This document shows, piece after piece, positions 5,146 through 7,611 of a stretch of DNA of 17,871 bases. The position numbers were made by a program, and so were the translations under genes. Location: the NCBI GenBank assembly GCA_013375475.1, contig JABXKD010000070.1, positions 1 to 17,871 of the forward strand. Direction: 5' to 3'. How positions within the stretch are numbered: position 1 is the first letter of the stretch; the number at the start of each line of letters is the position of its first letter. The notes beneath the pieces are model-generated. The model did no database searches, was not told the DNA's origin, and saw only the letters and a program-made list of their open reading frames with translations. Source of the DNA: Promethearchaeota archaeon. Its GTDB lineage: Archaea; Asgardarchaeota; Lokiarchaeia; Sigyniarchaeales; SOKP01.

Positions 5146-7611
5146 TTAATCTTCACATAAAGGTGAAAATCTTGGTTCTTCTAAACCCGGTTCAACATTC
5201 ATCTCAATTTGATTCAATTGAACTAATCGTAAAGCTTCGTAGCGAACTTTTTTGGTTTCTAAATTTAAGGTTTTTGAAATGTTGCTAATCGTGGTTGGAC
5301 CTTGAAGGGTTACATAATCTAAAACTTGTTGTCGTGGAGTTTTCTCTAAGACTTCCATTTCTCGTTTTGATTTAAGATTGATTGCTTTCTTTAATTCGTC
5401 CTCGTTAACAGTGCCCTCTTCGAATGACCCTTGAGCTATGGACTTTTCAATGATTTCTTTTCCTCTTTCTGTCCACGCTACGACGGTTGTGAAGCCTTGC
5501 TTGGAACCAACCTCTCCTGCCGTGAAATCGGAATAAATTGCAGGAAAATCCTGGCAATGAGAACAATAATGATTGCAACTTAAACACCGTCTAGCTTCGG
5601 CTAACGCCATATCTTCAGTAAACATTGCTTCGATTTCCTCAAAATTCCATTGGATGTCTTCGGTAGCTTCTTCTAAAGATTCTGGTTTTAATGAATAATC
5701 CTTAGGAGTTCTTGTAATTCCTTCAAAAAACATTTTATTTTGCCTATAGCGCCCCTTTGATAAATCCTCTCCCTTTAAGTATCGATCAATAGAAATAGCC
5801 GCTTCTTTACCATGGGCTATTGCCGCAATTGCAACTGCTTTCGAGTGAGTAATGGTATCTCCACCTGCAAAAACTCCCGGAATGTTGGTTTCAAAAGTTA
5901 TCGGATCGATCTCGATTTTATTGTGTTCCTTTTTGAGTTTATTGCCCGTAGCAATGTCAATCAAATTGAAATCAACGGCTTGACCAACGGCAATAACTAT
6001 AGCGTCTGCTTTAATTTCATAATCAGAACCCTCAATTTTATTGATTGAGCGTCTCCCAGTATTATCTACCTCTCCTTTTTCGATTTTGTAGCTATTTAGA
6101 ACTAATGTCTCACCTTCTCCTTTGCTGATTTTTGATACTGAAGTTTCAAAATGATATTCCATGAACTTTAGTTCTTCTTCAGGAATTTCTCGAAGTACGA
6201 GTTCAAGATCCTTTTCATTCATTATGTCGACAAGGTGGATTTTTTCTGCTCCTAGCCTCAGAGCTGTCTGTGCAACATCAACTGCAACGGGACCACCGCC
6301 TATTATTCCAATTGTTTTACCCTTAAATTCTTGCTGCTTCTGCCAATCGCGATATTTTCTATCTATAAGAAAATTGATAGCAACATGTACGTTAGGAAGT
6401 TCTTCTCCTTCTAAGTGTAAAGTCCGTGGTTTATACTGACCTGTTGCTATAAAAACAGCTTCATATCCATCATTTTTTAAGTCCTCAATCGTCATATCAG
6501 GTCCTAATGGTTTATTAAATACAATATCCACTCCAGCTTTTTTGATAGTCTCAACATCATAATCTAATACATAATCAGGTAACCGGAATTGAGGTACTCC
6601 ATATCGAAGCATACCACCAGTGTGATCAGTTTTTTCGAAAATTGTGGGAGAATAGCCTTTAAGCGATAAAAAATATCCTGCTGTAAGACCTGCCGGTCCA
6701 GCGCCTATTATCGCAACTTTCTTGCCTAATTTCTTCTTAATCTTCACACTCTTTTTTATATCTTGCTTAATTTCGTATTCTGTAATGAATTTTTTTAATT
6801 CTCTAATAGCGACAGGGTGATCCGAGCCGATTAAAGTACACCCGTGTTCGCATTCGTGCGTACAAATTCTTCCACATATAGATGGTAGTGGATTGTCATT
6901 GCGAATTAAATCTACAGCTTCCAGATATTTACCTTCTCTTATCAATGAGATATATCCTTGAGCATTAACACCCGAAGGGCAGCCTCCACAGCATGGCGAG
7001 CAGACTAAACCACGATCTGTTTCTGCAGTTCTCATGCTTGAGTTACAGAATAATCCAATTTTAAGGATATCTCGATTCATTTCTTCTCCCATTTCAGAAG
7101 CTCCTCTTATCTCACATGGAACTCCAACAATACCTACGGGTTCAAAATTATCTCCAGTTACCTCTACTAGCTTCTCTAAGACCCCAGATCTTCCATACAC
7201 GGCACCTGCGTTTTGAATCACATCTTCTGGATCAGTTACTCTGCTTGCTTTAGGTAAATCATCAATATTTTGGACCATCACGACTTCAGATAACTCCTTA
7301 TCTTTTAAGAGCTGTTTTGTAATTGTTGTGACAAATCCTCCGCTTGACGCTTTCTCTAGTATTTCAGAGTCCTTACTTCTTAAAGAATAAATTCCCAAAG
7401 GTTGAAGCTCTTTAAATTTTTTCTGCAATACTTGAGGGCAGTTTTGGTAACATTTACCACAATCTTGGCCTTCTCTTTCAAGGATACAATAATCTTTAAG
7501 TGTCGGTCGTAATGTTTCCATTTCAATATGCTTGCAATATCCTGCACATAGACCACAACCTTGGCATAAGCCCGCGTCAATAATTTCACTTCTTAATAAA
7601 TCAAAACTCAT
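5146..7611 (-). CDS. Chimeric Fe-S flavoprotein: 2x[4Fe-4S] ferredoxin + FrhB/FdhB (F420 hydrogenase beta-like) domain interrupted by a GltD/NfnB/SudA-like FAD/NAD(P) module + C-terminal winged HTH
   Basis: CQGCGLCAGYC and CGKCYQNCP. FrhB N-part: ASSGGFVT, AGAVY, VGVPCEI, KIGLFC. GltD module: SPCCGGCP, ICGRICTHECEHGC, IIGAGPAGL, GGMLRYGVPQFRLP, IIGGGPVAVD, FAGGD, EARRCLSC. FrhB C-part: CSHCQDF...DFTAGEVGSKQGFTTVVAWTERG. HTH: VLDYVTLQGPTTISNISKTLNLETKKVRYEALRLVQLNQI. Confidence 0.85.
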   Translation of the reverse strand: MSFDLLRSEIIDAGLCQGCGLCAGYCKHIEMETLRPTLKDYCILEREGQDCGKCYQNCPQVLQKKFKELQPLGIYSLRSKDSEILEKASSGGFVTTITKQLLKDKELSEVVMVQNIDDLPKASRVTDPEDVIQNAGAVYGRSGVLEKLVEVTGDNFEPVGIVGVPCEIRGASEMGEEMNRDILKIGLFCNSSMRTAETDRGLVCSPCCGGCPSGVNAQGYISLIREGKYLEAVDLIRNDNPLPSICGRICTHECEHGCTLIGSDHPVAIRELKKFITEYEIKQDIKKSVKIKKKLGKKVAIIGAGPAGLTAGYFLSLKGYSPTIFEKTDHTGGMLRYGVPQFRLPDYVLDYDVETIKKAGVDIVFNKPLGPDMTIEDLKNDGYEAVFIATGQYKPRTLHLEGEELPNVHVAINFLIDRKYRDWQKQQEFKGKTIGIIGGGPVAVDVAQTALRLGAEKIHLVDIMNEKDLELVLREIPEEELKFMEYHFETSVSKISKGEGETLVLNSYKIEKGEVDNTGRRSINKIEGSDYEIKADAIVIAVGQAVDFNLIDIATGNKLKKEHNKIEIDPITFETNIPGVFAGGDTITHSKAVAIAAIAHGKEAAISIDRYLKGEDLSKGRYRQNKMFFEGITRTPKDYSLKPESLEEATEDIQWNFEEIEAMFTEDMALAEARRCLSCNHYCSHCQDFPAIYSDFTAGEVGSKQGFTTVVAWTERGKEIIEKSIAQGSFEEGTVNEDELKKAINLKSKREMEVLEKTPRQQVLDYVTLQGPTTISNISKTLNLETKKVRYEALRLVQLNQIEMNVEPGLEEPRFSPLCED

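Follow-up and report, generated by a model that had tools for sequence, protein, structure and literature searches.

How do the heterodisulfide reductases of archaea without methanogenesis obtain their electrons? Asgard archaea lack methanogenesis but carry HdrABC and Mvh genes, and ideas about how far the closest lineage to eukaryotes depends on hydrogen and on syntrophy draw on these genes. A 17,871-nucleotide stretch of DNA from a Promethearchaeota archaeon (Lokiarchaeia; assembly GCA_013375475.1, contig JABXKD010000070.1), hereafter the window, poses this question in a specific form. The window comprises contig C256 in full, from a 3.92-Mb genome in 288 contigs, and carries an hdr-mvh operon containing a composite gene, frhB::nfnB, whose product (P0001) is an FrhB-type domain interrupted by an NfnB/GltD-like oxidoreductase cassette. 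Near-identical proteins carry the database source labels Lokiarchaeota or Promethearchaeota. We consider it moderately probable that P0001 is the NADH-driven, H2-independent electron-input subunit of a hydrogenase-free Mvh-Hdr derivative, with a bifurcating Hdr that acts on carrier-bound sulfur.

Domain order, fold and authenticity of P0001

P0001 is encoded by a single open reading frame (Table 1), and an initial annotation made from the nucleotide letters had proposed that its FrhB domain is split by an NfnB/GltD-like insert. Pfam domains, matches to solved chains and the predicted fold all confirm this. A domain scan recovered each of the expected families, namely FrhB_FdhB_N at residues 75-146 (50.9 bits against a cut-off of 22), FrhB_FdhB_C in two stretches (58.7 bits against 23.3; the best stretch, residues 652-736, covers profile positions 65-148 of 150), Fer4_20 at residues 191-284 (93.9 bits) and Pyr_redox_2 at residues 297-601 (96.4 bits), the last two likewise above cut-off. 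No NCBIfam model reaches its cut-off for P0001, the best being NF009410 with 401 bits against 516. The diagnostic motifs KIGLFC (residues 184-189), EARRCLSC (672-679) and CSHC (683-686) lie where the annotation had placed them. Two details required correction: three residues rather than four separate C679 from C683, and the gene, which had been ended at 5341, extends to 5146, a conserved 64-residue C-terminal tail having been cut off. Among solved structures, residues 3-171 and 682-749 of P0001 correspond to residues 5-192 and 272-339 of one and the same chain, 8rja_E, an F420-reducing subunit of formylmethanofuran dehydrogenase, and residues 200-681 correspond to the NfnB-like part of NfnABC (9bov_A, residues 97-568; E 6.5e-91).

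The AlphaFold2 model of P0001 is of middling confidence, with a predicted local distance difference test score (pLDDT) of 73.5 and a predicted template modelling score (pTM) of 0.62. In a fold search, residues 65..753 of the model matched the FrhB chain 9r51_B (Z 23.0, root-mean-square deviation 3.1, 225/282 residues aligned), and further FrhB-fold matches were 6qgr_B (Z 23.0) and 8rja_E (Z 22.0). The N-terminal half could give only 126 of the 225 aligned residues; therefore, both halves form one FrhB fold in the model, superposing together on single FrhB chains. The cassette matched GltD (2vdc_G, Z 25.8) and NfnABC (9bov_A, Z 25.0). The C-terminal tail was scarcely covered in the fold search with the whole model; its Pfam matches are sub-threshold (E 0.035-0.16), and clusters of winged helix-turn-helix proteins in the Atlas at 0.81-0.82 serve as a lead only. 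From its modelled secondary structure it is probably a winged-helix-like domain.

An assembly chimera, or a sequencing error that fuses two genes, would also yield a protein of this kind. However, a full-length copy (residue 1 or 2 to at least residue 815) is present in 64/400 genomes of the phylum, nearly all from one order, and 63 of these copies have no internal stop; the remaining one has an in-frame TAA (G281:C175, L030). More than 120 sequence clusters at 90% identity, 817-825 residues long, came from NCBI, JGI, ENA and Logan. Moreover, contigs assembled from other samples cross the junctions with zero mismatches: in run X2, record 20 (6607-7128) and record 17 (5362-5872) together span both, and in run X4, from another study, record 24 (5512-5814) spans the C-terminal one. 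Because the same full-length protein recurs in so many genomes, in independent clusters and on contigs that cross the junctions, the architecture is real and the chance of an artefact is negligible.

By family, matches at E <= 1e-100, a count that includes cassette-only matches to a paralogue of ~920 residues, fall in f1 (103/134 genomes), f3 (6/14), f4 (1/4) and f16 (1/22) and in no other. Among 1.84 billion representatives at 50% identity there are two other full-length clusters, P0124 (55%) and P0125 (46%), plus five fragments, and 143 of the best 150 representatives match the cassette only, in many hosts.

Permutation, cluster ligands and nicotinamide site of the cassette

Positions 14-112 of the Fer4_20 profile align with residues 191-284, whilst positions 4-36, which include the EAxRCxxC motif, align with residues 656-686, after Pyr_redox_2. 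Because the start of the profile falls after the Rossmann domains, the cassette is, on this alignment, circularly permuted relative to NfnB/GltD, and its two ends lie side by side. The canonical order, in which EAxRCxxC is N-terminal and precedes the Rossmann domains, is not found in P0001. The permuted start occupies residues 656-682 of the cassette and includes C676 and C679; the EARRCLSC pair, earlier assigned to the cassette, matches the start of Fer4_20 and indeed belongs to it. Between the two Fer4_20 parts lie an FAD Rossmann fold from residue 297 and an NAD Rossmann fold with GGGPVAVD at residues 438-445 and V-D at 461-462.

Twenty cysteines of P0001 are invariant in an alignment of 41 orthologues: eight in the ferredoxin domain (16, 19, 22, 26, 42, 51, 54 and 58), four in the FrhB parts and eight in the cassette (207, 211, 246, 250, 254, 258, 676 and 679). 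This inventory fits five [4Fe-4S] clusters, two of which are predicted for the ferredoxin domain. Since C676 and C679 stand 3-6 residues before the FrhB pair, the FrhB cluster and the last cassette cluster would have to be neighbours.

After the second glycine motif, 104/151 cassettes carry x-R-R...EMPA, and the P0001 family has HLVDIMNEKDLEL instead. The stretch GAEKIHLVD stands where most cassettes have Y-R-R...EMPA, and this NADPH-type motif after the second GGG motif is absent from the P0001 family. D462 is at least 90% conserved in the 41 sequences. An acidic residue that ends the second Rossmann strand usually favours NAD over NADP. The replacement of Y-R-R by V-D thus suggests that the cassette uses NADH rather than NADPH, which narrows the NAD(P)H donor originally proposed.

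The cassette in place of the F420-contacting lid

The insertion site lies between the second (C189) and the third (C683) cysteine of the FrhB [4Fe-4S] motif, PC...C...CxxC, whose four ligands (C166, C189, C683 and C686) are invariant in the 41 orthologues and in three paralogues. The stretch from GLFC to CxxC is ~58 residues long in three FrhB paralogues of this genome that carry no insert, compared with 493 in P0001. For this reason the initial proposal that the intervening FrhB segment has been replaced, rather than displaced, holds at the level of sequence.

What was lost can be read from published structures. The cluster ligands of FrhB are Cys104, 134, 192 and 195 (PMC3591093). In Fsr, with the cluster motif PCX40CX54CX2C, residues 204-253 form a 'lid' (PMC10229431), and in the cryo-electron microscopy structure of FrhB a three-stranded sheet at residues 148-172 bears an IGKGK turn, the only conserved element of the segment, beside the F420 ring; F420 density is also found near Ser209 and Val210 (PMC3591093). 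Since these structures put the lid and the IGKGK turn in the replaced segment, the cassette takes the place of the F420-contacting lid, and by this mapping it replaces the F420-binding lid of FrhB. No lid segment with an IGKGK turn is found in P0001.

Ser209 maps to E700 when 17 residues are counted on from the third cysteine. This position is E or D in 45/45 family members; four solved homologues that react with F420 have S, C, S and S there, and the genome's own paralogues have G, A and G, so that the small residue of this F420-proximal position is missing from the P0001 family. The acidic residue in every member makes the F420 reactivity of P0001 doubtful, and F420H2 is probably no longer a substrate, the FrhB flavin pocket appearing retained but remodelled.

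A hydrogenase-free operon with sulfur-carrier genes

From 14741 to 4870 on the minus strand the operon reads tusA, dsrE, dsrE, dsrH, dsrE2-like, hdrC, hdrB, hdrA, mvhD, mvhG', frhB::nfnB, tusA. The last four junctions before the downstream tusA overlap or abut, and start and stop codons overlap along hdrA/mvhD/mvhG'/frhB::nfnB. The gene order is kept in 6/6 close loci and in 9/10 distant ones (52-74% identity), the tenth being cut by a contig end, and a TusA gene adjoins frhB::nfnB in 15/16 related loci. Both short TusA genes escape a list of open reading frames with an 80-residue minimum. The two TusA and four DsrE/DsrH-family genes in the operon suggest that its Hdr acts on carrier-bound sulfur. 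In the window there is no LbpA gene, and by Pfam the operon contains no gene for an NfnA-like partner ([2Fe-2S] plus FAD).

The neighbour upstream of frhB::nfnB had been annotated as MvhG joined to a large-subunit remnant. Residues 41-255 of MvhG' align with MvhG of the solved Mvh-Hdr complex, and the protein has 13 invariant cysteines. No [NiFe] large subunit (PF00374) is present in the window; in the genome, matches occur on contigs C265 and C277 only. The C-terminal extension of MvhG' matches no Pfam family and no PDB sequence (best E 0.63, to an unrelated protein). With hhalign, its residues 266-330 fall on residues 40-105 of the two large subunits from the same genome (probability 5-6%, E 0.006-0.007), and in these low-probability alignments (5-6%) G286 and K289 occupy positions of the large-subunit Ni-Fe CxxC cysteines. 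FrhA (6qgt_A, chain 40..404) covers residues 263..413 of the MvhG' model (Z 9.2, root-mean-square deviation 3.0, 132 residues) and is the sole match of this kind among the top 50 from the fold search; the model itself is poor, with pLDDT 60 and an Fe-S part below 50. The Atlas places the extension with fragments of Ni-dependent hydrogenases at 0.84, and the C-terminal DPIGII looks on inspection like the DPCISC with which a true large subunit of this genome ends. These leads from hhalign, fold and Atlas are weak but agree, and they uphold the annotation of the extra ~150 residues as a putative Cys-free relic of a hydrogenase large subunit. As MvhG' would have lost its catalytic partner yet kept all of its cluster ligands, it needs a donor.

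The genome retains genuine hydrogenase loci elsewhere. Contig C277 (L021, L022) holds a true mvhD-mvhG-mvhA-like locus whose large subunit has RVCGLC and DPCISCASH, and contig C265 (L020) holds a second large subunit beside a 437-residue small-subunit homologue. One and the same genome therefore contains a true mvhD-mvhG-mvhA locus and this hydrogenase-free Hdr operon. The significance for the Asgard question is that one conserved Hdr system of the Lokiarchaeia lacks a hydrogenase active site and carries an NAD-type entry module and sulfur-carrier genes instead.

The cassette in other hosts

At least three Fe-S proteins of the same genome host the permuted cassette, namely FrhB, a split Fer4_11 protein (L018) and a Fer4+CCG protein (L019). 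Overall, its hosts include FrhB, Fer4_11, Fer4+CCG, HdrA-MvhD and NuoG-like proteins, the HdrA-MvhD type being represented by P0134. A cassette tree was computed from 61 of 160 sequences, 99 representatives being left out, by a quick search with support from the Shimodaira-Hasegawa-like approximate likelihood ratio test (SH-aLRT) only and a midpoint root. In it, Lokiarchaeal cassettes from FrhB and CCG hosts group in a single clade (SH-aLRT 100), separate from 44 other representatives, and nested within this is a clade (support 99) of cassettes with V-D or V-E instead of Y-R-R that includes both hosts.

The Fer4-cassette-CCG proteins of ~920 residues in L033, L034 and L035 have cassettes 57-61% identical to that of P0001, with V-D common to both, and in a different genus (L036) this host carries a cassette with Y-R-R and only ~47% identity. 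Identities of the C-terminal host part and of the cassette are mildly discordant; they exclude the N-terminal host values of L036 and L026 and the cassette and C-terminal host values of P0125, and they do not settle between exchange among hosts and parallel change. Host and cassette histories may thus differ. Two genomes of a sister family (L029, 1650-4090, minus strand; L025, 8372-10810, minus strand) carry after tusA a second frhB::nfnB copy, 46% identical and of the Y-R-R type; the copy in L029 is out of frame near residue 147, from a frameshift or an assembly error.

Proposed electron path and alternatives

P0001 would have originated when a circularly permuted NfnB/GltD-like cassette entered an FrhB/FpoF-type F420H2-oxidase domain and ousted its lid. 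The cassette would carry FAD, a nicotinamide site and two [4Fe-4S] clusters. Cofactor content, direction of flow, NADH specificity, subunit contacts and the sulfur substrate are inferred from what is observed, namely domain order, cluster ligands, fold, conservation and operon. NADH would reduce the cassette FAD, and electrons would pass through the cassette clusters (C211/C246/C250/C254 and C207/C258/C676/C679) to the FrhB cluster (C166/C189/C683/C686) and from there to the ferredoxin domain. In Fsr the ferredoxin domain corresponds structurally to the C-terminal portion of FrhG (PMC10229431). From the ferredoxin domain of P0001, electrons would continue to MvhG', MvhD and the bifurcating FAD of HdrA, which would pass them on to ferredoxin and, at HdrB, to a disulfide or persulfide that the TusA/DsrE-type carriers of the operon bring. 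This makes for a concrete and testable reaction of NADH with a carrier persulfide or disulfide and ferredoxin.

Several observations weigh against this reading. The contacts between the subunits are putative: a complex prediction with residues 1-290 and 615-821 of P0001 as two chains plus MvhG' (910 residues) scored 0.00, which we count neither for nor against binding. In the middling P0001 model all Fe-S loops fall below pLDDT 50. The FAD motifs of the FrhB domain are invariant (GG at residues 91-92, Y139, S142, D695 and GxxGS at 699-703), which makes a second flavin in P0001 likely; as a flavin without a substrate would be odd, F420 or another substrate may still bind the FrhB pocket. The genome makes F420, with CofD and CofE above their cut-offs and side by side on contig C227, and encodes about ten further FrhB paralogues. 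Because the EMPA loop is missing as well, the NAD site may be altered beyond a preference for NADH, and Y-R-R is retained in the paralogous subfamily P0125 and in the operon copy of L026. Finally, evidence for transcription is weak: contigs from RNA libraries (X15, X16) match only parts of the gene (90-99% identity), the uncovered stretches carry no information, and the signal may stem from DNA carry-over.

With respect to F420, the genome has many FrhB-like paralogues that begin with a ferredoxin domain, contig C221 encoding three, and the archaeon seems to rely on F420 as a major cofactor. CofH is represented by a fragment only, in a small open reading frame on contig C31 that is below cut-off. 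PF03807, tried as a marker for Fno, matched in 14/14 control genomes and was discarded as uninformative.

The persistence of the FrhB fold with its FAD motifs, the F420 biosynthesis genes, the position in sequence of the FrhB cluster between both flavin branches, and the existence of F420H2-dependent Hdr complexes (Elp-Hdr, PMC12350162) would all suit an enzyme with two inputs. Such an enzyme would oxidise F420H2 with the FrhB FAD and NAD(P)H with that of the cassette, and would link the F420 and nicotinamide pools to each other, as first proposed, and to Hdr. The loss of precisely the IGKGK-turn segment that lies beside F420 and the acidic Ser209 position in 45/45 members weaken that proposal. 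F420 is anionic, which we count against it too, and we regard such a dual input as rather unlikely. A bifurcating role for the cassette FAD, as in the NfnB of NfnAB, would give the complex two bifurcation sites; this was also part of the initial annotation. The cassette is homologous to NfnB (4ylf_B, E 5.3e-69), and our own mapping, from the alignment and PMC10482914, finds the arginine that contacts N5 in NfnB conserved as R343. However, StnC, the closest solved cassette, has the same arginine and an FAD shown to be non-bifurcating (PMC10482914). Moreover, NfnB has a Glu ligand on the flavin-proximal cluster (PMC10482914), whereas this cluster is all-Cys in P0001 as in GltD, and by our own count C246 is invariant at a position that is Ile in StnC. 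The operon lacks a gene for an NfnA-like second exit, the cassette flavin shows no second way out, and the nicotinamide motif is not of the NADPH type. By analogy with StnC, the cassette flavin is probably not bifurcating, and a second bifurcation site in the complex appears very improbable.

P0001 might instead work alone and be merely co-transcribed with Hdr, as an NADH:ferredoxin or NADH:TusA-persulfide reductase, or as a regulator, with its tail binding DNA or a carrier protein. It contains every link between flavin and a ferredoxin domain at the surface, its tail is winged-helix-like in appearance, tusA is its neighbour in nearly every related locus, and the complex prediction is undecided either way. 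Against a stand-alone function are the 4-nt overlap of its start codon with mvhG', the conserved gene order of the close and distant loci, and an MvhG' that has all cluster ligands without a catalytic partner and consequently needs a donor. We judge it improbable. Taken with the NADH-driven input to Hdr that we favour, these findings allow a broader scenario, which we offer tentatively and think on balance unlikely to hold in all its parts. Lokiarchaeia would possess a paralogous, H2-independent Hdr machine in which a fossil Mvh (MvhG and a Cys-less MvhA relic) serves as a wire, and the FrhB::NfnB protein gives NADH electrons to HdrA for bifurcation to ferredoxin and to TusA/DsrE-bound persulfide. 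The remodelled FrhB pocket, with an invariant acidic residue at the Ser209 position, would be a new, third redox site, for a non-F420 substrate or as a two-electron buffer; the specificity would have been switched by the exchange of lid for cassette, and the cassette would be mobile between Fe-S hosts within the lineage.

Relation to known systems

The nearest precedent for the insertion, by analogy, is HdrL of Desulfobacterium autotrophicum together with HdrA9-11 of ANME-1, which are HdrA proteins with an NfnB/GltD-like insertion and a proposed entry of NAD(P)H (PMC2702500, PMC9012536). The HdrL parallel drawn in the initial annotation stands. Like P0001, these proteins have an NfnB-like cassette of ~480-500 residues inside an Fe-S element of a host linked to MvhD/Hdr, and in P0001, too, a permuted cassette sits within the Fe-S ligand motif of the host. 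In HdrL and ANME-1 the host is HdrA, with a split ferredoxin domain and the Y-R-R nicotinamide motif; in P0001 the host is an FrhB-type F420H2-oxidase domain stripped of its substrate lid, the nicotinamide motif is V-D, and the HdrA of the operon is uninterrupted (671 residues). The ANME paper places the NfnB-like insertion in HdrA and not in FrhB (PMC9012536). No description of an FrhB host for the cassette was found in the literature searched, in keeping with the original impression that none is characterised; subscription papers and supplementary tables were outside this search and may annotate the gene. The cassette and the idea of its insertion are thus known already, whilst the FrhB host, the apparent lid replacement, the V-D site and the putative fossil-hydrogenase context are new. 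As such, P0001 offers a clear case of evolution by cassette insertion, in which a substrate lid would have given way to a complete flavin/Fe-S oxidoreductase at a cluster-ligand motif.

Among solved structures, the cassette is most closely related to StnC and NfnABC (8oh5_C, 9bov_A, 9n5u_A; E 6.5e-91 to 3.6e-81, Z 23.5-25.0). They are permuted in the same way, with the EAxRCLxC motif after the Rossmann domains, and differ in that their host is NuoG/FdhF-like and NADPH is bound. The flavin-proximal cluster of StnC has a Lys or Cys ligand (PMC10482914), unlike the all-Cys site of P0001. On the FrhB side, Fsr, FpoF/FqoF and the F420-reducing subunits of carbon monoxide dehydrogenase and Fmd from Ethanoperedens (7np8, 8rja_E, 8riu_B) share with P0001 a two-cluster ferredoxin domain followed by an FrhB fold with PC...C...CxxC; they keep the lid, have a small residue at the Ser209 position and are F420-reactive, whereas P0001 has the cassette for the lid and E700.

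For the donor arm, the nearest analogue is Elp-Hdr of Methanothermobacter marburgensis, which replaces Mvh and combines ElpA, a truncated FdhA, with the donor ElpB and an MvhD homologue (PMC12350162). Like the arm proposed here, it feeds Hdr from a catalytic subunit devoid of its active site, an FrhB-family donor and an MvhD homologue. Its vestige derives from FdhA, whereas the one proposed here would derive from a hydrogenase (MvhG and the MvhA relic), with an NAD-type cassette added to the donor; its acceptor is CoM-S-S-CoB, compared with the carrier-bound sulfur that is the likely acceptor here. Flx-Hdr (FlxABCD-HdrABC) of Desulfovibrio takes its electrons from NADH, uses an MvhD-like connector and has a sulfur-carrier protein as its acceptor; its NADH-binding subunit FlxA is unrelated to P0001. 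In contrast to the operon described here, sHdr systems are without MvhD and without bifurcation. DsrE and TusA transferases always accompany them (PMC11094781).

Features of the window

Table 1. Coordinates of frhB::nfnB, its parts and the other operon genes in the window.
Feature	Position	Strand	Basis or remark
frhB::nfnB (P0001), 821 residues + stop codon	5146..7611	-	single open reading frame, translation, Pfam domains, full-length orthologues
residues 1-65, N-terminal ferredoxin domain	7417..7611	-	alignment with N-terminal ferredoxin domains of Fsr and 8rja_E; invariant Cys
residues 66-189, FrhB N-part to GLFC, ligands C166 and C189	7045..7416	-	Pfam FrhB_FdhB_N, PDB alignments, invariant Cys
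residues 190-682, inserted NfnB/GltD-like cassette, 493 residues	5566..7044	-	Pfam, PDB sequence and fold matches, invariant Cys
residues 683-757, FrhB C-part, ligands C683 and C686, E700 at FrhB Ser209 position	5341..5565	-	Pfam, PDB alignment, position mapping from PMC3591093
residues 758-821, conserved 64-residue C-terminal tail	5149..5340	-	AlphaFold2 secondary structure: three helices and a hairpin, block pLDDT 73-90
mvhG', 413 residues	7608..8849	-	small-subunit homologue with putative Cys-free large-subunit remnant (residues ~263-413); 4-nt overlap with frhB::nfnB start
mvhD, 152 residues	8839..9297	-	Pfam FlpD, E 1e-30
hdrA, 671 residues	9288..11303	-	Pfam; NCBIfam HdrA2 736.7 bits, below cut-off of 1100
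hdrB, 304 residues, two CCG domains	11304..12218	-	Pfam CCG, E 2.6e-36
hdrC, 192 residues, 8 Cys	12222..12800	-	Pfam Fer4 dicluster families
DrsE_2-type gene (dsrE2-like)	12848-13273	-	Pfam DrsE_2
dsrH-like gene	13378-13719	-	Pfam DsrH
dsrE-like gene	13736-14158	-	Pfam DsrE
dsrE-like gene	14110-14487	-	Pfam DsrE
tusA-like gene heading the operon, 77 residues	14508..14741	-	Pfam TusA, E 2.5e-22
tusA-like gene, 78 residues, 39 nt downstream of frhB::nfnB	4870..5106	-	Pfam TusA, E 1.8e-18

Outside the operon, a divergent Lrp/AsnC regulator (14975-15472, plus strand) faces the operon start, a nitroreductase-family gene lies at 822-1559 (minus strand) and a URO-D-family gene at 1859-3124 (plus strand). 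NosD/beta-helix proteins are encoded at both ends of the window (3-785 and 15794-16981, both plus strand). Elsewhere in the genome, contig C13 carries a canonical NfnB-like gene of 483 residues beside a 294-residue neighbour.

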